Positions 19,652-30,322 of a DNA stretch of 30,322 nt are shown in pieces. The translations under genes and the position numbers were made by a program. How positions within the stretch are numbered: position 1 is the stretch's first letter; every line of letters begins with the position of its first letter. Origin of the DNA: Planctomycetota bacterium (lineage in GTDB: Bacteria; Planctomycetota; Planctomycetia; Pirellulales; Lacipirellulaceae); contig JBCCXZ010000052.1 of NCBI GenBank assembly GCA_039190745.1, positions 1-30,322 on the forward strand. Direction: 5' to 3'. Under the pieces are notes generated by a model. The model was not told the DNA's origin. It worked only from the letters and a program-made list of their open reading frames with translations, and made no database searches.

Positions 19652-20929
19652 TTGACGAAGACGCCCCCCAATCCCGCCGACGACGACGGCGGCGCTACAC
19701 CGGGCTTCGATGAGCTCGGCCTCTCCGAGATTACTCTCGAAGCCCTCCGCGAGGCGCAGTACCACCAGCCTTCGCCAGTTCAGGCGGGGCTCATCCCGGA
19801 AGCCCTCAAGGGCGCCGACCTCCTCGGCCAGGCCCGCACCGGCACCGGCAAGACGGCCGCGTTTGCGTTACCGATCTTGGAACGCCTCGATGAACCCGTG
19901 AAGGGCCACCCCCCGCGGGCTTTGGTGCTCGTGCCGACGCGCGAACTCGCGGTGCAGGTACGCGACGAGATGGCCAAACTCTCCTTCGGCCGCAAGCTCC
20001 GCTTCGTCGCGGTCTACGGCGGCAAGCCGATCCGGCAGCAGATCACCCGACTGGAGAAGGGGGCCGACGTCGTGATCGGCACGCCCGGGCGGGTGCTCGA
20101 TCACCTCTCGCGATCGACGCTCCGCCTCGAAAAACTTGATGTTGTGGTACTCGACGAGGCCGACCGGATGCTCGACATCGGCTTCCGGCCCGACATCGAG
20201 CGCATCTTGCGCCGGTGCCCCAGCTCGCGGCAGACTCTGCTGCTCAGCGCAACGGTGGCCCCTCCCGTGGAGCGGCTGGCCAAACGCTACATGCGTAACC
20301 CGCAGATTATGGACTTCTCGCCGAAGTCTAAGTCCGTGGACACGATCGAGCAGCGTTACTTCACAGTCGAAGAGCCTCGGAAATTCGACCTGCTGGTCAA
20401 GTTGCTCGAGCGAGAGCAGCCAGAGCAGGCGATCATATTCTGCCGGACGAAGCGCGGCACCGATCGGATACACAGAAAACTTTCCTCTAAGTTCAAGCAG
20501 GTCGACTGCATCCACGGCGACATGCAGCAGGGAGCGCGCGACCGGGTGATGCGGGGTTTCCGCGACGGCAAGGTGAAAGCACTAGTCGCGACTGACGTCG
20601 TGGGGCGTGGCATCGACGTGAGCACGATCTCGCACATCATCAACTACGACATCCCGCAGTCCTCGGACGACTATGTCCACCGTGTCGGCCGCACCGGCCG
20701 TATGGGCCGAGAAGGCATCGCGTTCACCTTCGTGACGCCGGAGCAAGGCATCGAGCTCACCCGGATCGAGATGCTCATCAACCGACTGCTGCAGCGGGAT
20801 GAGATCGACGGATTCCGCGCGGTGCCTGAAGCGGCGCCTCAGCCGGCCGAGCCGGAGAAGCCCGTCGAGAAGAAGCCGCCGCCGCCGGGCTCACGCTCTC
20901 GCGGCCGCCGACACAAGCGGGCGCTCTGA
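19652..20929 (+). CDS. DEAD-box ATP-dependent RNA helicase
   Basis: Q motif, ARTGTGKT, PTRELA, GG, TPGR, DEAD, SAT and HRVGRTGR motifs. Motif V reads VGRGID. Confidence 0.95.
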   Translation: MTKTPPNPADDDGGATPGFDELGLSEITLEALREAQYHQPSPVQAGLIPEALKGADLLGQARTGTGKTAAFALPILERLDEPVKGHPPRALVLVPTRELAVQVRDEMAKLSFGRKLRFVAVYGGKPIRQQITRLEKGADVVIGTPGRVLDHLSRSTLRLEKLDVVVLDEADRMLDIGFRPDIERILRRCPSSRQTLLLSATVAPPVERLAKRYMRNPQIMDFSPKSKSVDTIEQRYFTVEEPRKFDLLVKLLEREQPEQAIIFCRTKRGTDRIHRKLSSKFKQVDCIHGDMQQGARDRVMRGFRDGKVKALVATDVVGRGIDVSTISHIINYDIPQSSDDYVHRVGRTGRMGREGIAFTFVTPEQGIELTRIEMLINRLLQRDEIDGFRAVPEAAPQPAEPEKPVEKKPPPPGSRSRGRRHKRAL

Positions 20930-20943
20930 TCGCCGAAAAGCGG

Positions 20944-22032
20944 TTATTCTGGTGCAGCGAACACGTCGCGGAGAATGGGCGCGACTTCGTCCCAGCGAGC
21001 GGCAGCCGCTTCGAAATCGATTTCCATGGCACGAATCGTTTCCGGCGTCTCAACCCGCGCGTTCGTTTCTACGCCCTTGCCGAGTGGGATCTGAGCGCTC
21101 GGGCCGGAAGCAAGCATGCGTTCGACTTCCGGAGACAGCAAGAACTCGACCAACTCCTGCGCCGATCCCGCGTTCGGGCTGCCGCTGATCCGGGCGACCG
21201 TGTTTGGGATGAACAGCGTCCCCAGTTCGCCCTCTGCCTGGTCGGGGTAAACGATCGCAACGGGCCTGCCCGACTCGACCTCGGCGATGGCGTCGTCGGT
21301 GTCGGTCAGTCCGAAGGCTACCTCCCCCGCGGCGACCGCTAGAGCAACCTGCTTGTTGCCGGAAAGTACTCGGGCGTTCTTATTCACCGTGCGGAAGAAG
21401 TGCGTGGATTCTTCGTCACCCAAAGCAGTGTAGAGGCACATGGCGTGGGTCGCCGTGGTGCCGGCCAGGGGTTTTGCGATCGCGCACTTCCCCTTCCAAT
21501 CCGGGTCTGTCAGCGCGTAGATCGATGTCGGCGTAACCTCTTCGGCAACCAGGCTGGTGTTAACCAGCAAGACCCTCGCCCGAGCGGCAAAGCCGTGCCA
21601 GGTGCTATCCGTGCCTCGGAACGAGGCCGGGAATGCCTCGGAAGCTGCGTTCGGGCTCGGGGCCAGTAGCCCCTTTTGCTGCAAGCGGAGCGTGTTCAGG
21701 ATCTCGTTGTTCCAGAAGACGTCGCAGATGGGCCGTGCGCTCTCGGCCATAATGGCTTGGGTCAACCCGACGGTCTTAGTCGACTCGGTATCATATTTTG
21801 GTCTCACGGCGATGCCGGTCTGTTCGGTAAAGCGTTCCAGTACCGGGCGTGAAAACGGCTCATCGAGGGCTGTGTAGACGACAACTGTCTCTTCCGGCTG
21901 AGACCGGAAGCAACCTGACATTAGCAAGGAGAAAGCCACTGCCAAACGGCGGGCGGCCCGGCCATCTAGGCCGCGAAACGGCCTCCACGGGGCAGCGGGA
22001 TGGCTGGGAAACCTGAGGTGCTCGTAGATCAT
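20944..22032 (-). CDS. ABC transporter extracellular solute-binding lipoprotein (Fe3+/FutA-like family); start uncertain
   Basis: Lipobox-like LLMSGC plus VVVYTALDE, DVFWNNE, RARVLLVN, GLTDTDD and IPNTVA motifs. Confidence 0.82.
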   Translation of the reverse strand: MIYEHLRFPSHPAAPWRPFRGLDGRAARRLAVAFSLLMSGCFRSQPEETVVVYTALDEPFSRPVLERFTEQTGIAVRPKYDTESTKTVGLTQAIMAESARPICDVFWNNEILNTLRLQQKGLLAPSPNAASEAFPASFRGTDSTWHGFAARARVLLVNTSLVAEEVTPTSIYALTDPDWKGKCAIAKPLAGTTATHAMCLYTALGDEESTHFFRTVNKNARVLSGNKQVALAVAAGEVAFGLTDTDDAIAEVESGRPVAIVYPDQAEGELGTLFIPNTVARISGSPNAGSAQELVEFLLSPEVERMLASGPSAQIPLGKGVETNARVETPETIRAMEIDFEAAAARWDEVAPILRDVFAAPE

Positions 22033-22086
22033 TGTGTACCCGACGATTAGAATGCTACGAAGTTTTCGCATCACGGCAGGCCTTCG

Positions 22087-22827
22087 ATGAAACTGCTGCT
22101 CCTCGGGACTACGGGCTACCACCCGAACGACCGTCGCCAGACGGCCTGCTTGATGCTGCCTGAGATCGGCCTCGTGTTTGATGCGGGCACGGCCGCATAC
22201 CGACTGCGCGAGTACCTGAAGACCCCTTCTCTGGACATCTTCCTAACCCACGCTCACCTGGACCACGTCATTGGTCTGACGTTTCTCTTCAACGTGATTG
22301 ACGGCACCGGCATTGAACGTGTCGCGGTTCATGGAGAGCCGGAGAAACTGGAGGCGATTCAACAGCACCTGTTCTCCGAACTATTGTTCCCCGTTGCTCC
22401 GCCTTTGGACATGCACCCGCTGGAGCAGAATCATAAGCTAGCGGACGGGAGTGTGTTGACTCACTTCCCGCTGGAGCACCCTGGCGGTTCGGTGGGTTAC
22501 CGGATCGACTGGCCCGATCGTTCTTTCGCCTACGTGACCGATACGGTCGCTTTTGATGATGCTCCGTACCTCAAGCTTATTGAAGGAGTCGACGTACTTG
22601 TTCATGAGTGTTACTTCAACGACGACATGCGAGAGCACGCGGAATTGACCGGGCACAGCTGCTTGTCGGATGTAGCACGGGTCGCCTCGAAGTCGGGGGC
22701 GAAGAGAACCATCCTGGTTCATATGAACCCGATGTACGGATCGGACAACCAACTCCTGATGGCCGAAGCGAAGCGGATCTGCCCTACGATCGAGTTGGGG
22801 GTCGACCGGATGGAAGTGGACTTTTAG
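22087..22827 (+). CDS. Metallo-beta-lactamase fold hydrolase, RNase Z/BN-like
   Basis: LLGTTG, FDAGT, THAHLDH, HPGGSVGY, VTDT, VHEC, GHS and LVH motifs. Confidence 0.88.
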   Translation: MKLLLLGTTGYHPNDRRQTACLMLPEIGLVFDAGTAAYRLREYLKTPSLDIFLTHAHLDHVIGLTFLFNVIDGTGIERVAVHGEPEKLEAIQQHLFSELLFPVAPPLDMHPLEQNHKLADGSVLTHFPLEHPGGSVGYRIDWPDRSFAYVTDTVAFDDAPYLKLIEGVDVLVHECYFNDDMREHAELTGHSCLSDVARVASKSGAKRTILVHMNPMYGSDNQLLMAEAKRICPTIELGVDRMEVDF

Positions 22828-22842: not shown

Positions 22843-24156
22843 TTACTGGAGTTGGTTCTGCAGTCTCCGCAAGCTCCGACGGTAGGCATAGTACTCAACC
22901 TCCAAATCGTGGCGGGGGGAATCAACGTACGCGATCGTTTTCCGCACGCACTCAGCCGCTTTGCGTTTGTCCGCCCGCAATCGTGAAGCCGCCGGTGCGT
23001 CCTGCTTCTTCGCGGTTAAAAATCTCGCTATAGCCAGTGCCTGATCGTCCACCAACCCCCACTGCCCGCTGTCTGGTTGGATCATCCCCGCGATGAATAA
23101 GTCGTCTCGCTCTGGGTGAAAGATATTCAAGTAGAAACCCCGGTTGCCGCTTCCGGAGGGCAGGAAGCGGTCTTCGAGGAACGGCATGGTCAGCTTGAAC
23201 CCTGTCGCGAACACGACCAAGTCGACCTGTGTTTGGGAGCCGTCGACGAAGTAGACGAGGTTGCCCTCAAAGCGTTCGATGTCAGGCCGCAAAGTTAGCC
23301 TGCCATGACCGACATGGTGGTGCAACTGCGAGTTGATGATGGGGTGCGTCTCAAAGAGCCGGTGGTCGGGCGTCGGCATTGCGCAATCGGCGTTGGGCCC
23401 CAGGGCCCAACGTGCTGCGAGCATTGCGATGCGGCGTCGCAGCCACAGCGGCAAGCGTAAGCGATGCAGCAAGTCGCCCCACTGATCGATTGGCACACCG
23501 CGGAAGAACTTCGGCAGCACATGATAGCCCCTCCGCCAACTGAGTTCGGCGTGGCGCGCGTGGACAGCCGCTTCGGCCGCGATGTCGCACCCGGAGTTGC
23601 CGCCTCCGACAACCAGCACACGCTTGTCGCGGAGCGTTTCGGTTCTCTTGTACTGCGAAGAGTGCAGCACCTCTCCTGTGAACTCACCTGGGTACTCAGG
23701 CCAGCGGGGGTCCCAGTTGTGGCCGTTCGCGATCACGACCGCCGCAAACTCACAAGCGGTTCCGTCACTTAGCTCGACACGCCAACCGCTGTCTTGAACC
23801 TGCTCGTTCAGCGGCTCGATGCGTAGCACTTCGGTTTGGAACTGAATATCCTTCCGCAGATCGAAGTGCTCCACGTAGCTGAGCAGATACTCGATCACTT
23901 GTGCATGCCCCGGGAAATCGGGAAAGCGCTCGGGCATCGGGTAATCGTTGTACTCGGTGAGTTCCTTCGACGAGATCAAGTGGGTCGATTCGTTGATGCT
24001 GCTCGCGGGGGAGCCGATGTTCCAATTGCCCCCCAGGTCTTCGTGGGCTTCGTAGCAAACCGCGGCGACGCCCGCTTCGGTCAGCCGCTTCAGGGCGGCT
24101 AGCCCAGAGGTGCCGGCTCCGATCACGCAAACGGTTTTCATCGGTTCTCGGTGCAT
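22843..24156 (-). CDS. Flavin-containing monooxygenase (FMO family)
   Basis: VIGAGTSG FAD motif, FMO fingerprint FTGEVLHSSQYK, VVGGGNSG NADP motif, FATGF. Alternative start at 24141. Confidence 0.92.
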   Translation of the reverse strand: MHREPMKTVCVIGAGTSGLAALKRLTEAGVAAVCYEAHEDLGGNWNIGSPASSINESTHLISSKELTEYNDYPMPERFPDFPGHAQVIEYLLSYVEHFDLRKDIQFQTEVLRIEPLNEQVQDSGWRVELSDGTACEFAAVVIANGHNWDPRWPEYPGEFTGEVLHSSQYKRTETLRDKRVLVVGGGNSGCDIAAEAAVHARHAELSWRRGYHVLPKFFRGVPIDQWGDLLHRLRLPLWLRRRIAMLAARWALGPNADCAMPTPDHRLFETHPIINSQLHHHVGHGRLTLRPDIERFEGNLVYFVDGSQTQVDLVVFATGFKLTMPFLEDRFLPSGSGNRGFYLNIFHPERDDLFIAGMIQPDSGQWGLVDDQALAIARFLTAKKQDAPAASRLRADKRKAAECVRKTIAYVDSPRHDLEVEYYAYRRSLRRLQNQLQ

Positions 24157-24317
24157 TCGATACAGGCGGCCGCAGTCTGGTGGAAATGCTGAGGCTTGCC
24201 GGGCAAGCCTAGGTGGATTTCTGCTGCGGGGAGCGCTCGGTAATTGACTTCTGCGGAGAACAATGTACTCCTGTACACATTACTGCAGATTCTGTGTACC
24301 CTCTCAGTGTATCCATC

Positions 24318-24836
24318 ATGGCTAGGGAAACGCGCGAAATCGAGCCCGAACGGCTCTACAGCAAGAACCTCAGGCGGTTGATGGCAAAGCTGGACATGAC
24401 GCTCCAGGATGTCGTTGATGCGTCGGGGGTGGATGCACGCACTCTAGGGTCCCTGCTGCGGGGGACAACCAAGCCCCACGCGCGAACGTTGAAGAAGCTC
24501 GCAGACGGCCTGGGGGTCGGCTCCGACGAGTTGTTCCAGAGCCTCTTTTCGGTTGGCGCCGCTTTCGACCGAGACACGAACCCGGTTGTGGCTGAGGCTG
24601 TTGATTCCTCCCCCTCCATCTTCAACCAATGGTCGCAAGAGGACTTCGACGAACTCTACAGCCGTGTTGGGATCGGCGGCGGGCTAACCATAGATGGAAC
24701 TATTGAGGCCGCCAATCGGATGAATGAAAAGCGCGAGCTGTTGCGTCAGGCCGCGCTTGTTCTAGAAAGTTCTGAGCAGGACGTGCTCCGCGAGCTGATC
24801 CAGATCCTCTACCGCAAAGTGACCGTCAGCGAGTAA
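24318..24836 (+). CDS. XRE-family helix-turn-helix transcriptional regulator
   Basis: NLRRLMAKLDMTLQDVVDASGVDARTLGSLLRGTTKPHARTLKKLADGLGV Cro/C1-type HTH. ATG 24318 is preferred. Confidence 0.85.
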   Translation: MARETREIEPERLYSKNLRRLMAKLDMTLQDVVDASGVDARTLGSLLRGTTKPHARTLKKLADGLGVGSDELFQSLFSVGAAFDRDTNPVVAEAVDSSPSIFNQWSQEDFDELYSRVGIGGGLTIDGTIEAANRMNEKRELLRQAALVLESSEQDVLRELIQILYRKVTVSE

Positions 24837-24873: not shown

Positions 24874-25509
24874 CTAGGCGCTCTCCGGGACAACGCGGAT
24901 CGAGAGCGAAGCGCCGAGACGCTCTGGCATCTCCACTTCATCTAGCAAAAAGATATCTCCGGAAGTCGTCACAAACCGATCCCCGGCTGTCAACTCTACT
25001 GGCTCGATGAGAGACAAACGGTAGGAAGTCGTCACGACAGGGTCGATGGCGTTCGGGTCGTCGACCGAAATGGATTCGAGAGCAACCTGAGCGGGGTAGG
25101 CCATCGAGACGAGACTCCAGCCGATCGTTTCCCCTCCTTCGACAATCGGTCGTTGGATGTCCACGCTTTCGGCAAGCGAAGGCGGGATGGACAATCTCCG
25201 AGTTTCGAGCTTCCATTTCTTGAGGGGGGGCGAGTACCTGGTGCGGAGAATCACTGCAGCCAGTCCCCCGTTTTCTACGAGCGTGTCGCCGACTTGCGGG
25301 CTCGGACCAGAAACCGGCAGTTGCAAACTCCACTCGGTATCGGCGGCAACGACGGCGTTTTCAGAAGGGTCTTCCTGTTCTGAACGAGTAGGCCCGCGCA
25401 AGGCATTGGGGATGGGGATCGCGTAGCTGCCGCCGCGAGGGTAGAGATTGACGCCCTCACCCTCCACGAGGGTGCTAAAGTCTGCCTCGGCATGGATAGA
25501 GTATGGCAT
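24874..25509 (-). CDS. Putative phage head-closure/head-tail joining-like protein (apparently two similar beta-rich halves)
   Basis: Last gene of the head operon, TGATG-coupled. Both halves carry a xGDxxx motif (PQVGDTLV, LTAGDRFV) followed by short beta strands, as in head-closure proteins. The assignment is inferred. Confidence 0.5.
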   Translation of the reverse strand: MPYSIHAEADFSTLVEGEGVNLYPRGGSYAIPIPNALRGPTRSEQEDPSENAVVAADTEWSLQLPVSGPSPQVGDTLVENGGLAAVILRTRYSPPLKKWKLETRRLSIPPSLAESVDIQRPIVEGGETIGWSLVSMAYPAQVALESISVDDPNAIDPVVTTSYRLSLIEPVELTAGDRFVTTSGDIFLLDEVEMPERLGASLSIRVVPESA

Positions 25510-25724
25510 CAGGTGGCGCCCCAGGACTGGATTTCGTACGGCTGCTGATCAGCAATCTTATGGTCACACCATTCGACGGTTGCCCGGAGCGAGGCCACGT
25601 ACTCTGTCCAGTCCACTCGCTGCCCGTCGATGACGTAGCTGGGCTTGGGCTGTGCGGTCACGTCGGCTATTTGCGCCAACGCTTGGCTCCGTATCGCAAT
25701 CAACTGTTCTGCGTCGCTCGGCAT
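25509..25724 (-). CDS. Putative head-completion/adaptor protein, lambda gpW-like (71 aa)
   Basis: Helix - SYVIDGQRV hairpin - helix pattern. TAATG overlap with the upstream gene and GAGGTG SD. Confidence 0.6.
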   Translation of the reverse strand: MPSDAEQLIAIRSQALAQIADVTAQPKPSYVIDGQRVDWTEYVASLRATVEWCDHKIADQQPYEIQSWGAT

Positions 25725-26122
25725 TACAGGCACCTCAACATGAATCGGAAGACTACCCTCTGCCCTTGCACGGGCGTAACCTCGTACCTCACCAGGTAGG
25801 TTGCTCCGGGGCTGGTAAAGGCCTCGGCCGCAGACACGTCAATCTCGTGACGGAAGTTGTAGCCAGTGGAGTCGACGCTCCAAGAGCCGTCGTTCTGGAG
25901 CGTGTCGAAGACGCAATCGTTCGCGTTAAGGCTAACATTCTCGTGGCCAGTCACCGGCGATTGCGGGTCTTGGCCATGCGTGGAGAGTTCGAACACCGAA
26001 TAACTGATCGAAGACACGTGGGCTCGAATCAGGTTCTGGCCGGAAGCATTAACGACACGCGCCATTAAGACCGCCGTGCCTTTGTTGTAGACGGTTCCGT
26101 ATGCGTCTCTTGCAGTCGACAT
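25724..26122 (-). CDS. Hypothetical beta-rich protein of the head operon (132 aa)
   Basis: TGATG overlap with the LamG gene, GGAGG SD, coupled on both sides. Confidence 0.75.
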   Translation of the reverse strand: MSTARDAYGTVYNKGTAVLMARVVNASGQNLIRAHVSSISYSVFELSTHGQDPQSPVTGHENVSLNANDCVFDTLQNDGSWSVDSTGYNFRHEIDVSAAEAFTSPGATYLVRYEVTPVQGQRVVFRFMLRCL

Positions 26123-26898
26123 CAGGAAATGACCTCCGCGCAAGGATCGAGATCGTTAGAGGCAAGGCCTGCGGCCCAGGCTTCTGCGGCAGCCGCACCT
26201 GCCGAGTAGCTCTGGGACGCGGCGTCCCAGAACGGCCCGGGCGCCCGGGCTCGCTGTGAGAAAACAGGGCTGTTTCGAGCTTTTAAAACACGAGGATGCG
26301 TCGTCGCGGCTGGACTCTGTGCGGATGTTGCAAGGGGTCCGAGACCGGGGCGATTGCCGCGGGCGACAAAGTCGTGGTAGGCGACTAGGTCCTTGCGGCA
26401 AGGCAAGCTTAGGGGCGTAGCACCGGCTGCCAACTCCGCGATCTGATCGGCAGCTACTTCGCTTCTCCAAATCGCGACTTCCGCGGCGTCGAAAGTGCCC
26501 GGTAACGACGCGCCGCCCACCCTGTAATGGGTAAGTGTGTGGAACTCTCTCGGATTGGTAAGCGTGTTCTCGAAGACACCGTCGAAGTAAATCGATCGGC
26601 TATTCACCGCGCGGAAGACACCTGCAAGATGATGCCACTCGCCAGGCTGAACCGAGCTGACCGAGACTGCTGCCCCTACCGTACCCTGGTCGATGGTGAG
26701 AGCGGCCACCCATCCTGTGGGGTGCCCGGCGTAGAGCAATAGGTGGCCTGAAGTTTCCGACGCGTCCTTAAATTCGACAAACGTCTGCATGCTGCCGGAC
26801 ATCTCAGACTTGAACCAACCGGAGATCGTGAACGGGTAGTCGGTGATCGCTAGATCACCCAGGTTCAACCACGTCGATGCGCTGATCGTGACGGCCAA
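26122..26898 (-). CDS. LamG/concanavalin A-like domain protein (possible virion-surface adhesin)
   Basis: FTISGWFK, GEWHHLAGVF, SIYFDG and EVAIWRSEVAADQI match the LamG-like jelly-roll pattern. Confidence 0.78.
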   Translation of the reverse strand: MAVTISASTWLNLGDLAITDYPFTISGWFKSEMSGSMQTFVEFKDASETSGHLLLYAGHPTGWVAALTIDQGTVGAAVSVSSVQPGEWHHLAGVFRAVNSRSIYFDGVFENTLTNPREFHTLTHYRVGGASLPGTFDAAEVAIWRSEVAADQIAELAAGATPLSLPCRKDLVAYHDFVARGNRPGLGPLATSAQSPAATTHPRVLKARNSPVFSQRARAPGPFWDAASQSYSAGAAAAEAWAAGLASNDLDPCAEVIS

Positions 26899-26900
26899 AT

Positions 26901-27386
26901 CTAGGACTCCTTCAATTCGATCGAGACAATCTCCAACCCATCGGCTAGCGTGTCCGACGGATCGGACGCCAACCGCTCGGCGGACAGCATGAAATGCTGC
27001 CCCTTAGAAGCAGACGACAGAGGCATGCTCAGCGACTGCTGCTCGGCGAGGTCGCCTGCTGCGCTCGGCGCCGTCAGTGTGGCTTCAGCGTTCTGCGGAG
27101 CCGCTGTTGGGCTCTCTAGGCTCTCGCCTGGAGCGATGGGGGTCACACTCAGTCGAAGGAGGGCCGCTCCGCTGGTCGCGGTTTCGGTTGTGTAGTGGAC
27201 AACGCACGTGACCCCGTTGCCGCTATAAACGGAGGGCGCGACCGCCACAAAAGCTGCTCGCTGGTTCCCCGAGCTACTGAAGCGCAGCACTACGAAGTCG
27301 CCGCGCAAGGCCAGCGTCGCGTAGTTCGACGCCGGCGGCAGATTAGCCAAGGCGTCGAACGCGACGAGGGTATCGCCGGCTGCCAT
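26901..27386 (-). CDS. Hypothetical protein downstream of the major capsid gene (161 aa; possible head fibre/spike component)
   Basis: GGAGGAG SD 6 nt before ATG 27386; beta-rich; 2 nt from the next gene. Confidence 0.7.
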   Translation of the reverse strand: MAAGDTLVAFDALANLPPASNYATLALRGDFVVLRFSSSGNQRAAFVAVAPSVYSGNGVTCVVHYTTETATSGAALLRLSVTPIAPGESLESPTAAPQNAEATLTAPSAAGDLAEQQSLSMPLSSASKGQHFMLSAERLASDPSDTLADGLEIVSIELKES

Positions 27387-27482
27387 AGGATTCTCCTCCA
27401 TCGGTTGATACGGAAAACCGTCCCGCGAGCGAGGCGGGCTCTGGGCCCAGCCCCGCTCTGTGGGGGTCGATGCAACTGCCGT

Positions 27483-28640
27483 CTAGGCCGTGCACTTCAC
27501 GACGTAGCGTGGGTCAAGCACCGCCGCGGCTCCGCGCTCGCTTGCTTTGAACCGTAGTACAATGTCGTTCGAGAACTCCGCCTCTCCTCCGAGCGGAGCC
27601 TGGGTCACCGTAATCGGCCAGTTCTCCATGTATGCGAACGCTTTTTGGAAGTCCCCCAAGAACCACTGCTTCTGAGCGGCCTGGAACTGCACGCCCGCGG
27701 CGAGGAGTCGGCGGTACGCGATCCGGCTTTCGTTGACGGTATAGCTGCCCAACGGATTCGCGCTGGTCGTTTGTGAATCCCCTCCTGGAGTTGTGTAGGT
27801 GATCTCGCTCGCGTTGAAGATGCGGTGCGCATTGTGGCGGTACGCAGGCATCACGAGCACGTTCGTGGCCCGGAGCAGCACCGGTTCGCCCGTGTTGGGA
27901 TCGAGGATGTCGGCCATGAGTTGCTCAGCGGCGTCGACGTTAGACCAGTCCACCAGTTCGTTGCCGGGCAGTTGGTTGGCCCACTCACCGGAGAGCAGAT
28001 ACGTGTCTGTGCTCTGCCCGTTGAACTTGTACGGGTTGTTGATGCCGAGCACGGTGTCGAGGATCCGTTTCTCCTTGTTGAGACCTAAAACCTCGCCGAC
28101 TTCTGAAGCCCGGTTGAGAATGAGATTGCTCCGGTCGAAGAAAATCGCCTCTCGGGTCACCGGGACGATGAAACCCCGCTTCTCCGTGGGCGGCGTCTCG
28201 ACATAGCTCTCGCTGAAGCCGAGGTTCGGGTAGGGCATCCCCGGTCCGACCTCGGTGATGTCGTCGTGCACCTGCCCGATCGTTGGGAGCTTCTCTCCGT
28301 CGAGACGCGTGGGGATGGTGCGAACGAGCTTCGACGCAACGAACGCCTCGTGCTCGTATGAGTCCAGTACGCGAGTCTGGATAACATGCCCTGTTACGGC
28401 CTGGAACGCTGTGCTGTCGACGCCGTCGTAGGCCTCGTGCACACTAACGCTGCCGTTCCGGGGGTCGAGCGTGTTGACCCAGGCCGACCCTTCCGGGATT
28501 AGCGCCTCGGCGAGTCCACGGATACTGAAGTCGTCTGGGGTAAGGTGTTTCTCTTGAAGGGCTTCGCTGAAGTGCCGGACGGTCGCTTCGCCCCCGTCCA
28601 GCTCGAATCGTCTCTTCACCTCGCGGTAGTTGATGCCCAC
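27483..28640 (-). CDS. Phage major capsid protein (HK97 fold, Mu gpT-like)
   Basis: 385 aa with AAGGA SD. VGPGMPYP...EKRGFIVPVTREAIFFDRSNLILNRASEVGEVLG resembles the E-loop/spine helix of HK97-fold capsids, and the C-terminus ends in GAAAVLDPRYV. Its position after protease and decoration genes fits. Confidence 0.82.
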   Translation of the reverse strand: MGINYREVKRRFELDGGEATVRHFSEALQEKHLTPDDFSIRGLAEALIPEGSAWVNTLDPRNGSVSVHEAYDGVDSTAFQAVTGHVIQTRVLDSYEHEAFVASKLVRTIPTRLDGEKLPTIGQVHDDITEVGPGMPYPNLGFSESYVETPPTEKRGFIVPVTREAIFFDRSNLILNRASEVGEVLGLNKEKRILDTVLGINNPYKFNGQSTDTYLLSGEWANQLPGNELVDWSNVDAAEQLMADILDPNTGEPVLLRATNVLVMPAYRHNAHRIFNASEITYTTPGGDSQTTSANPLGSYTVNESRIAYRRLLAAGVQFQAAQKQWFLGDFQKAFAYMENWPITVTQAPLGGEAEFSNDIVLRFKASERGAAAVLDPRYVVKCTA

Positions 28641-28694
28641 GCTATCGTTCCTTATTGGGTGTTTACTTGCTTACGGCCTCGTGTTGACCGTGCG

Positions 28695-29165
28695 TTAGGC
28701 AGCCGCCTGGGGCCCCCCGCGGACGACCGTACTCACTACGTCTACAAGCACCTTGGCCGCGGCCTGCGGCTGAGAACGGACGCAACGCCCGATCGCGAGA
28801 CTGGGCGACAACACCGTGGCGATCGACTGGTTGTAGAGTTCCGCCCCGCTCACGGGTTCGTGAGTACCTAACAAGTCCCCGATGCCGTAGGTGGCCGAAG
28901 CGCTGAGAAACTCAAAGACCCCGCTGGTAGCAACCCGGATCGACTGGGTCTCTCCCTCGGGTGATTGCTGCATCGCCACACCAAGGAAGCTGTCGTGGAA
29001 CGCCTCCTGATTGGCAGGCTCTGAGCCTAAGTTCGCGAACGTTCCAGCGGAGACCGCGCTGCCGGAACTGAGGGCGACGAGGTCGCCGACCTCGATCAGA
29101 CTGCTGTCTGCCGGAGCCATCACCGGGTTCGTGTCGCCGTACCGCCATCGCATTACATTTGCCAT
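28695..29165 (-). CDS. Putative capsid decoration/cement protein (156 aa)
   Basis: GGAGG SD; IEVGDLV...FLGVA...IRVATSGVFEF...IGD pattern typical of cement proteins; lies between the scaffold and capsid genes. Confidence 0.65.
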   Translation of the reverse strand: MANVMRWRYGDTNPVMAPADSSLIEVGDLVALSSGSAVSAGTFANLGSEPANQEAFHDSFLGVAMQQSPEGETQSIRVATSGVFEFLSASATYGIGDLLGTHEPVSGAELYNQSIATVLSPSLAIGRCVRSQPQAAAKVLVDVVSTVVRGGPQAAA

Positions 29166-29235
29166 TGCAAGACCTCCAGAATTGAGAGTTAGAAATTTCG
29201 CCCCAGCCCCTCGAAGGGCCGCTATCACTGCGTTT

Positions 29236-30177
29236 CTAAACAGCTTGACCCTTGATCGAACTCACAAACGCCTCGGTCGATACGGGCGGGTCGCCCATGC
29301 GCCCCCAAACGGCCGCCTGATCGGCAGCTACTGGGTGGTCGAGGTTGAGGCGGCCCCGGCGATCCCATACCGCGGCCTGGCGGACCAGCTTGGCTCGTTC
29401 CTCAATCAGCCGCTCCATCTCGAGGGGATCGCAATCCAGTAGGCCTTTAACAAATGCTTCGGTGACGATCGCGTCCACCGCGTCTCCAGACGGCATCGGC
29501 AGGCCATAACGCTCCAACAGCAGACGGATGCGCTCGCGTCGAAGGAGTAACTCTGCCTCGGCGACGGCCGTCTCCTTCTGGGTCTGCGCTTCTTTGAGTC
29601 GCTTCGACTCGTACTCCTGGACCAAGTCAGGACGGTGCAGCAGCAGTGATTCCAAAGTCAACGTATCCCAAGCCGCGACACTCTCTTCGGTACGCTGCTC
29701 GAAAAGCCCTTTCGTGGTTGCGGGGTCTGCGACAAGGTCGACGCTCGCCACTTGCGAAATCTCTTCGACAACTTCCACGCCCTTTTCCCGCGTCATCTTG
29801 GCCAGCACGTTGTGGGAGAAGCCCACGTTTTGGGGGCTGTGCTCGGCGTCCCAGATCAACTGCTCCGCCAGGGGGTGCTTTGGGTTGAAGTGGAGGTCGC
29901 CGAACAATCCGCTCTCCGCGACGAACCGTACTTTTTCCACGGCGCCGATCCGGTCTCTGTAGTCTCTCGGCGCAAGCGGGCCGCCCTGGGCGTGGTTCAC
30001 GTTGACCTTGGCTTTTTCGTAGAGCTCGGCCGACTCCGACAGGGCCCGCTCGCGGTAGACCCGGCCGTTGCGAGACGCCAGCCCCAGGAGTTTCACTCGG
30101 TGAATGACACCGGCGTCACGGTCGACCCGAAGGTCTACGCCGCCGGAGTCGACGTACTCTTGCAGGCTCTCTGTCAT
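29236..30177 (-). CDS. Putative prohead protease/scaffold fusion (313 aa)
   Basis: SRNGRVY, VNVNH, GLFGDL, VGFSH and SVDLVADPA motifs of phage head maturation proteases, followed by a charged helical C-terminus. ATG 30177 has a purine-rich SD. Confidence 0.75.
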   Translation of the reverse strand: MTESLQEYVDSGGVDLRVDRDAGVIHRVKLLGLASRNGRVYRERALSESAELYEKAKVNVNHAQGGPLAPRDYRDRIGAVEKVRFVAESGLFGDLHFNPKHPLAEQLIWDAEHSPQNVGFSHNVLAKMTREKGVEVVEEISQVASVDLVADPATTKGLFEQRTEESVAAWDTLTLESLLLHRPDLVQEYESKRLKEAQTQKETAVAEAELLLRRERIRLLLERYGLPMPSGDAVDAIVTEAFVKGLLDCDPLEMERLIEERAKLVRQAAVWDRRGRLNLDHPVAADQAAVWGRMGDPPVSTEAFVSSIKGQAV

Positions 30178-30198
30178 GTGCCTCTTCCTCGTGGGGAT

Positions 30199-30252
30199 GA
30201 AATAAAAGAGCCCCGCGGTGGATTCCTGAGAGGATCGACCCCGGGGCTCTTT
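30199..30252 (-). terminator. Long hairpin with T-rich tail just upstream of the protease gene (intrinsic terminator/attenuator)
   Basis: AAAGAGCCCCG (30205-30215)/CGGGGCTCTTT (30242-30252) outer stem plus inner GGT/ACC, GAT/ATC and CCT/AGG pairs. On the minus strand the stem runs into TTTTATTTC. Confidence 0.65.
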
Positions 30253-30322
30253 CGGATACCGGTTAAGCGAACCCGCGCTTAAGGCTGCCCAGCGGAAACA
30301 GGGGTTGTAAATGTGCATGCGC

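Follow-up and report, generated by a model that had tools for sequence, protein, structure and literature searches.

How does an operon of phage-head genes come to stand among the ordinary genes of a planctomycete with no tail genes beside it, and is it what is left of a prophage or something that the host keeps? The question is raised by a stretch of 30,322 nucleotides from a Planctomycetota bacterium of the family Lacipirellulaceae, order Pirellulales (hereafter the window), which is the entire contig C52 (JBCCXZ010000052.1) of a metagenome-assembled genome (MAG) of 125 contigs that is 95% complete. Positions 24874-30322 carry, on the minus strand, a head operon of eight open reading frames (ORFs), the three distal junctions of which are TGATG/TAATG overlaps and the last stop codon of which lies 37 nt from that of a convergent XRE-type regulatory gene. 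An earlier note, made from the letters of the window alone, had described eight intact genes, distal coupling by such overlaps and the 37-nt gap, and all are as described, every frame being present and uninterrupted. The module is fixed in the chromosome of the Lacipirellulaceae and has co-diverged with the flanking housekeeping genes under purifying selection. Judged by its genes, the element appears to be a vertically inherited, selected, head-only system resembling gene transfer agents (GTAs). The proposal of the earlier note, a host-maintained head-only element rather than a decaying prophage, is supported by near-universal distribution in the family, congruent trees, purifying selection and a fixed site.

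The complete module, its site and its inheritance

The window contig stops 145 nt upstream of the start of the first head gene, which encodes a protease, and the other half of the module was studied in relatives, above all in the closest one, a locus of the same genus on a 1.6-Mb contig (L082). ORF calling, iterative hidden Markov models and ORF clustering over 161 sources were simple in-house procedures, and cluster names such as c18 are our own labels. Upstream of the protease gene, L082 encodes a ParB-like protein (phrog_620), a fusion of an ABC-type ATPase with a GNAT acetyltransferase (phrog_11143, E 3e-93), the small and large terminase subunits TerS (phrog_4102) and TerL (phrog_38, E 3e-76) and a lambda-family portal protein (PF05136, E 8e-22); farther left lie a trypsin-like peptidase gene and small genes without known function, and the peptidase and c19 genes co-occur with the cluster across families. 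The complete module of the relatives thus spans ~11-13 kb, of which the window holds the distal half. Its first half runs from the ParB-like and ATPase-GNAT genes through TerS, TerL, portal and a small protein to a terminator-like hairpin, and its second half comprises protease/scaffold, decoration and capsid genes, genes for 0-3 variable surface-type proteins, those for a 71-aa head-completion protein and a stopper, and the convergent XRE gene. The earlier note had left the part upstream of the window to be looked at, and in L082 it holds the terminase and portal genes; no tail, integration (integrase) or replication genes were recognised there or in the complete modules of the relatives.

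At least 95% of 72 sequences retain the Walker A, Walker B and nuclease motifs of TerL, and at least 95% of 55 those of the ATPase/GNAT protein. The consensus architecture over the 161 sources has two variable spots, from portal to protease and from capsid to adaptor. Insertions of 4-8 kb occur at the first of these in the family loci L136, L138 and L143. The ParB-like and ATPase/GNAT genes, the latter with Walker A, an LSxGE-like signature and Walker B, always precede TerS-TerL, in tailless and in tail-like forms alike (44 and 64 loci; for instance L082:3377-5052 and L125:2724-4372).

To the right of the head operon, in order of increasing distance from it, the window carries the following genes.

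24213..24836, plus strand: convergent XRE/Cro-C1-type helix-turn-helix regulator at the right end of the element (HTH_3, E 1e-8; phrog_3/4 repressors), a candidate repressor
22843-24156, minus strand: FMO-like monooxygenase, host flank (Pfam)
22087-22827, plus strand: MBL-fold hydrolase, host flank (Pfam)
20944-22122, minus strand: solute-binding protein (SBP), host flank (Pfam)
~19652-20926, plus strand: DEAD-box helicase, host flank (Pfam)

The order XRE-FMO-MBL-SBP-DEAD is common to the window, L082 and many other loci of the family. On the left side, L082 has 17 kb of housekeeping genes beyond the trypsin-like peptidase (HisRS, NUDIX, lipoate ligase, HEAT, TPR, glycosyltransferase, CoA-binding, molybdopterin-binding (MoCF) and EEP-family), and 4 of the 6 family genomes fetched are syntenic with this flank over ~15 kb of such genes. 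The window and the relatives examined yielded no integrase, tRNA or att repeat: integrase and replication genes were found neither within 19 kb to the left nor within 10 kb to the right of the element (L082/L163), tRNA genes neither in the window nor in the five relative loci scanned, and an att-like direct repeat across the element was not found in L082. In four complete or near-complete genomes, the nearest match to a tyrosine recombinase (PF00589) lies from 287 kb (L082) to ~1 Mb away. The absence of an integrase and of a recognisable att site and the ordinary metabolic genes after the operon, both remarked on in the earlier note, hold with flanks known on both sides.

We compared a tree of concatenated head genes with one of the four flanking host genes, also concatenated, for the 14 loci having both. 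Every supported clade is common to the two trees and branch lengths are similar, the stem of the pair formed by the window and L082 measuring 0.49 in the head tree against 0.43 in the flank tree. Pairwise distances follow those of the DEAD helicase with r 0.84-0.85 for portal and TerL and r 0.36 for the slowly evolving capsid protein (Mantel), the p-values of this test overstating the case since kin are not independent. Between the window and L082, the ratio of nonsynonymous to synonymous substitutions (dN/dS) is 0.05-0.19 for the head genes (dS 0.85-1.4) and 0.045-0.14 for the flanks (dS 0.6-1.26). In the closer pair L093/L121, dS is 0.37-0.69 in the element against 0.36-0.72 in the flanks, with dN/dS 0.04-0.16, and dN/dS in the seven pairs besides window/L082 is 0.03-0.35 overall; protease, decoration and capsid genes give 0.06-0.17 in L087/L088 and L018/L158. 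In Bythopirellula polymerisocia (L087) an inversion has put TerL-portal 11 kb from the capsid genes, and both halves remain full-length open frames. The earlier note had named a capsid tree incongruent with the host tree and relaxed selection as results that would speak against its proposal; the head-gene tree agrees with the host-flank tree, and selection is purifying as in the flanks.

In a pattern scan of species-representative genomes, the capsid protein had 346 relatives; among these the best 80 all belong to Planctomycetota/Pirellulales, and IMG/VR added a further 132. The capsid gene is present in 53 of the 58 genomes of the window's family, nearly always as a single match, and in 224 of the 401 genomes sampled from the order, the other families of which range from 0/57 in one large family to 47/57, 17/18, 12/13 and 11/12 elsewhere. 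Of the 61 family genomes searched for TerL, 51 have it, among them 40 of the 46 of high quality, and the gene is almost always of full length and adjoins the capsid gene. The distribution within the family is thus near-universal and mostly single-copy, not the patchy, strain-specific one that the earlier note had set against its proposal. Outside the order, distant capsid matches, mostly of 31-41% identity, occur in one sister-order family only (16 of 24 genomes), and none was seen in the other families sampled there. That sister-order family (f31) has a single distant homologue per genome, as at G545:C1:181374-182519 and G627:C1:883780-884940, which may represent an older or parallel domesticated element. 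Isolates of Aeoliella, Bythopirellula, Botrimarina and Lacipirellula are cultured carriers of the cluster.

Tail-like genes in relatives

In 42 sources the XRE gene comes directly after the last head gene, and in 53 there are tail-like genes after the stopper gene; wherever an XRE gene was seen in the latter, it comes after the tail-like genes, so that XRE marks the right end of the element in both forms. The tail-like relatives encode a ~135-aa gp17-like tail-to-head joining/terminator protein (phrog_176, E 2e-5; top PDB hit SPP1 gp17, E 0.058), a minor tail protein of phrog_290 (E 1e-28 to 6e-33), an 883-aa tail-fibre protein and several conserved unknowns; PDB profile searches with the clusters c24 and c20 gave no hits. 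One tail-like locus, L095, has the FMO gene beyond its XRE gene, which suggests that the chromosomal site stayed the same when the tail was lost.

A profile of the gp17-like protein matched none of 61 family genomes but 62 of 251 genomes in the order, where the match invariably lay a few kb from the capsid gene, a positive control for the search; the profile of a second tail-region protein matched 1 of the 61, and the sheath family none of five family genomes. Tail families were matched neither in the window nor in L082, and the operon is therefore without recognisable tail genes, as the earlier note had it. That note had also raised the possibility of tail modules elsewhere in the genome: tblastn of 2130 ORFs taken from downstream of the head genes in relatives returned host genes alone from the window's own genome, and the one tape-measure match over the cut-off there (PF10145) was rejected because it belongs to an integrative island on contig C14, not to a tail module. 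This small island (G000, C14 ~37000-46500; L169:7277-16434) is separate from and unrelated to the element of the window. It encodes a primase/helicase, an HNH endonuclease, an excisionase/TerS-like protein, a 501-aa major head protein (phrog_10, E 9e-45), the 643-aa tape-measure-like protein and an integrase, and looks like a satellite or remnant.

In a capsid tree of 111 rows, all 41 rows with XRE directly after the head genes fall, together with 11 rearranged rows, into a single clade (support 98) free of tail-like rows, and all 53 tail-like rows fall outside it, so that a single change suffices to explain the tailless form. Midpoint rooting nests the tailless clade among the tail-like rows, which favours loss, the position of the root not being established. 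Beyond the stopper, two sets of tail-like genes were met with in different clades, one with c18/c24/c20 and the fibre gene (e.g. L038:10135-18698) and the other with c49/c64/c33/c30/c31/c43/c34 (e.g. L112:13196-20657), and the tail-like part extends from one gene to ~8 kb. These differences suggest that the tail was reduced in several independent stages within the order.

The leader and the proteins of the head operon

The head operon of the window, from its leader to its last gene, consists of the following features.

30178..30322, minus strand: leader of the head operon, with a GC-rich hairpin, a T-run and a purine run resembling a Shine-Dalgarno site before the protease ATG; the contig ends here
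29236..30177, minus strand: 313-aa fusion of a prohead serine protease (~165 aa, N-terminal) with a helical, scaffold-like C-terminal half (phrog_29592, phrog_207, Atlas)
28695..29228, probable true start 29165 (156 aa), minus strand: decoration/cement protein (PF09956 Phage_cement_2)
27483..28640, minus strand: HK97-type major capsid protein, 385 aa (PF25209 Phage_capsid_4, E 8e-16)
26901..27401, minus strand: variable accessory protein a166, 166 aa, without family
26122..26898, minus strand: variable accessory protein with a concanavalin-A/LamG lectin-like domain, 258 aa (PF13385 Laminin_G_3, E 3e-14)
25724..26143, probable start 26122 (132 aa), minus strand: accessory protein b139, a predicted beta-sandwich
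25509..25733, probable start 25724 (71 aa), minus strand: small conserved head-completion protein c74, in adaptor position before the stopper
24874..25509, minus strand: two-barrel neck protein d211, 211 aa, with a C-terminal stopper/head-closure fold and an N-terminal neck/tube-like barrel

Several starts differ from those first annotated. The protease had been given a start at 30318, and both the sequence context and the alignment with L082 make 30177 the most likely one; the starts of the decoration, 139-aa and 74-aa genes are likewise most likely shifted to the positions listed, the L082 alignment of the decoration protein beginning at 29165.

The leader hairpin (arms 30252-30242 and 30215-30205, minus strand) folds with -33.8 kcal/mol and is followed by a T-run. 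Within 140 nt upstream of the protease start, 61 of the 72 related loci have a terminator-like hairpin with T-run, whereas three shuffles gave 0-2 of 72, and 43 of the 72 have a GTATC-N3-9-RAGC box just 5' of it (0-2 of 72 shuffled). The stem sequences vary between loci, some of which have two tandem copies, and the hairpin stands between the portal and protease genes. The structural operon may accordingly be terminator-gated, with read-through or antitermination as a possible control point. A sigma-70 promoter scan returned 0 sites, and a simple terminator scan missed the leader hairpin. The sole public run with the window sequence is a DNA metagenome, the contigs of which end at 30195 and give no upstream extension.

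The protease was recognised through phrog_29592 (E 1.6e-11) and phrog_207 (E 6e-4), while a PDB profile search gave no match. Its N-terminus has an ESM Atlas likeness of 0.96 to S77/S80 prohead proteases and a structural TM of 0.70-0.85 over residues 12-165, and columns of His/Ser/His type are invariant in 41 homologues; the S77/S80-like N-terminal domain, the invariant His and Ser columns and the helical C-terminal half together fit a protease-scaffold fusion. The decoration protein matches PF09956 with E 7e-4, under the Pfam cut-off, and has a homologue in 148 of the 161 sources. In the capsid protein, the window and L082 share 92% identity (dN/dS 0.047).

The three genes between capsid and adaptor are less widely shared. 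The protein a166, which has no Pfam, PHROG or NCBIfam match, is found in just 32 of the 161 sources (dN/dS 0.136). The LamG protein, present in 46, is the product of the fastest-evolving gene of the head set and a candidate capsid-surface adhesin. For b139, present in 76, the model (pLDDT 87) gave weak Ig-like matches alone in Foldseek (rmsd 8-10 Å), and a PDB profile search gave no hit. A b139 domain lies inside 557-728-aa proteins in L007, L099 and L103, ~2.3 kb after the capsid gene, and elsewhere the same slot holds 620-760-aa proteins without assigned function, which together make the capsid-to-adaptor slot a hot spot for surface-type proteins.

The last two genes encode what are probably the proteins that close the head. 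The small protein c74 is found in 136 of the 161 sources, with six invariant columns and dN/dS 0.055. The label 'gpW-like' that it had received is not supported: there is no Pfam hit to lambda gpW (PF02831) and no support from PDB profiles, hhalign against lambda W gives a probability of 0.4%, and the gpW cluster appears in the Atlas listing just at rank 20 with a score of 0.86. For d211, the model (pLDDT 91.5) has two beta-barrels. Residues 105-211 match at least ten neck chains (among them those of phiXacJX1, Pam3, Chi, Douge, SPP1 gp16, SaPI1 and the lambda neck) with VIA Z 8.2-9.8, and Foldseek gives the same chains a probability of 1.00 but E 2e-3 to 2.5e-2. The description of the last gene as head-closure-like is thus borne out by its predicted fold. 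Residues 14-109 reach Z 9.4 to chain 6tba_3A of the RcGTA virion, and this N-terminal barrel is also similar to tube and distal-tail folds (Z 6.5-9). At the level of sequence, the best PDB profile hits are SPP1 gp16 at E 0.33 and hhalign against lambda FII found nothing, so the relation is visible by fold alone.

What the element may be

Among known systems, the RcGTA-type GTAs of Alphaproteobacteria come close to the element in several respects: both are phage-derived structural clusters of ~11-15 kb at a fixed site without integrase or replication genes, both are vertically inherited across a large clade under purifying selection, and both encode heads of HK97 type, complete with terminase, portal, protease, capsid protein and neck proteins; one barrel of d211 also matches the RcGTA chain 6tba_3A in fold. 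RcGTA encodes its tail (terminator, tube, tape measure, distal tail, hub and megatron) directly after the stopper. By contrast, the window's family has no tail, and has in addition a lambda-family portal, a decoration protein and the ParB-like and ATPase/GNAT proteins, in a cluster known here from its genes. Encapsulins have in common with the element a host-maintained shell of HK97 fold, but they are without portal, terminase, protease and neck proteins, all of which are kept in this cluster. Phage-inducible chromosomal islands that form capsids (cf-PICIs) are mobile satellites with integrase, att sites and replication genes that are induced by helper phages and spread across species, whereas the element of the window has no integrase, tRNA or att site, is bordered left and right by conserved genes and has a tree that agrees with that of the host flank. 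As described (10.1101/2025.02.11.637232), cf-PICIs have, like our element, genes of their own for terminase, portal, protease, capsid and head-tail connector but none for a tail, and release tail-less, DNA-filled capsids that later join foreign tails.

The head-neck modules of lambda and SPP1 share with the element the order TerL, portal, protease/scaffold, decoration, capsid, adaptor and stopper, together with the PF05136 portal, a stopper fold like that of SPP1 gp16 and lambda FII, and, in relatives, a gp17-like protein next in line. Unlike those phages, the element is without tail, lysis, replication and integration genes and is chromosomally fixed and vertically inherited; it is not an intact tailed prophage, as such modules were not found beside the head module. 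Some thaumarchaeal loci (Krupovic et al. 2019, PMC6563490) have an apparently functional morphogenesis module without att or replication genes and were proposed to be domesticated 'akin to GTAs'; as described there, they are archaeal, of head-tail type, few and mutually divergent, whereas the present element has no tail, and conservation throughout the family, congruence and selection have been measured for it. These thaumarchaeal loci and the tail-less capsids of cf-PICIs are the nearest published ideas that we met with. An earlier description of the element was not found in the literature on planctomycete phages and GTAs, most subscription journals lying outside the coverage, and the phage and capsid passages of a 2025 review of the phylum and of a 2026 description of two species of the family do not mention it.

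The reading that we favour, and to which we would give slightly more than an even chance, is a tailless, DNA-packaging, GTA-like particle under XRE control. The element would already have been chromosomally fixed in an ancestor within the order, and a single deletion, at the base of the family or close to it, would have removed its tail module, whereas the pathway of head assembly and DNA packaging would have been retained for some service to the host. In some cells XRE repression would be relieved, TerS and TerL would package DNA into procapsids, and these would mature through the protease, be sealed by c74 and the stopper and be decorated with the lectin-like proteins, to be released as tailless DNA-filled particles, a head-only GTA-like viriform. 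The cut lies exactly between the head-completion proteins and the first protein of the tail pathway, the gp17-like one, which fits heads, and not virions, as the selected product.

Several points weigh against this reading. TerL, portal and ATPase/GNAT of L082 found no match in the window's own assembly (tblastn), and the completeness of the element in this organism is read from its same-genus relative; lysis genes were not identified. Synonymous divergence between the window and L082 (dS ~1) is near saturation, and the gene maps depend on the in-house ORF calling and clustering. The 'tail-like' labels were partly given on weak matches, as for the gp17-like protein with its PHROG E of 2e-5 and PDB E of 0.058, the clusters c20, c24, c31 and c34 have no known function, and unrecognised tail proteins could hide among the accessory genes or the upstream peptidase and c19 genes. 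Erosion is seen within the family as well: the capsid match is absent in 5 of 58 genomes and that of TerL in 10 of 61, four TerL matches contain one stop, a Lacipirellula genome has just a 55-aa TerL remnant, the stopper profile is absent in three of the five family genomes checked with the C-terminal barrel alone left in a fourth, and genes are fragmented in several long-read MAG loci. Particle formation, DNA content, release and transfer are predictions from the genes, and we know of no delivery mechanism for a tailless HK97-type capsid.

Heads that borrow tails would be DNA-filled capsids with a stopper docking face that take tails from co-resident or infecting phages, or free ones, while the element itself stays immobile and vertically inherited. 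The retention of c74 and the gp16-type stopper in the window's genus and many relatives, the presence of related tail-bearing elements in the same order and the joining of cf-PICI capsids to foreign tails, as described (10.1101/2025.02.11.637232), all fit this explanation, but the cognate gp17-like tail-top protein is missing from all 61 family genomes, the stopper is missing in three of the five checked while capsid, portal and TerL are intact, the element, of fixed site and congruent phylogeny, has no integrase or att site, and no helper phage is known; we consider it fairly unlikely. The fixed site, the lack of an integrase and the congruent trees do not sit easily with a mobile satellite. 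Quite unlikely, in our estimate, is a selected function other than DNA transfer, be it an anti-phage device that sequesters phage DNA, tails or assembly factors or an evolving compartment for storing protein or DNA. Such a function would agree with the stepwise loss of the neck (tail, stopper and, in one genome, TerL) under continued purifying selection on protease, decoration and capsid, and with the conserved ParB-like and ATPase/GNAT proteins that travel with the cluster. Yet no cargo-type gene was seen, and TerL and portal, needless for a protein compartment, are intact in most family genomes with conserved catalytic motifs; the intact TerL, with ATPase and nuclease motifs, and the intact portal argue against a plain nanocompartment.

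The cluster might instead be a minimal tailed GTA or cryptic phage whose tail or delivery device has gone unrecognised, formed by the LamG protein, a166, b139, the second d211 barrel or the upstream peptidase and c19 proteins. Several of its proteins are without family, the N-terminal barrel of d211 resembles tube and distal-tail folds, and peptidase and c19 accompany the cluster across families; this is nevertheless improbable, as a166, LamG and b139 sit between the capsid and adaptor genes, the usual place of head accessories, many family loci that retain the other genes lack these three, and the cluster has no gene of tape-measure or nozzle size. Least probable of all is a functionless, slowly decaying prophage remnant that is syntenic merely through age. 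The tail genes are gone and some lineages show further deletions, the inversion, the 4-8 kb insertions and fragmented genes, as such a remnant would. Against it stand open frames kept in dozens of species with saturated synonymous sites, dN/dS of 0.03-0.25 equal to that of neighbouring housekeeping genes, conserved catalytic motifs and near-universal, single-copy presence; intact frames, motifs and host-like dN/dS across saturated divergence are hard to reconcile with decay.

If the favoured reading of a tailless packaging particle is carried further, a bolder picture emerges, which we put forward as possible though doubtful. The Pirellulales would own an ancient domesticated phage element that shed its tail in one whole family, and its stopper too in some lineages, without giving up the packaging of DNA. 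No tailless gene-transfer particle would have been known before it, and its lectin- and Ig-decorated capsids would be taken up or opened by recipients without an injection machine, and the tailed, tailless, stopperless and terminase-less forms would make up a living series from virus capsid to host-owned compartment. Planctomycetes are known for an unusual uptake of large molecules. To our knowledge, all characterised GTAs are tailed, and HK97 capsids that are filled with DNA but have no tail are known from mobile satellites only.

A head-only packaging module selected across a whole bacterial family would, if confirmed, be a new form of virus domestication, and it raises the question of what use a DNA-filled capsid is without a tail, a question that is directly testable as cultured strains carry the cluster. 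The graded loss of tail and neck within the order is relevant to the question of how capsids turn into organelles of the host. For the planctomycetes themselves, which are poorly tractable genetically, the element would, if the reading is true, be a candidate natural route of DNA exchange.

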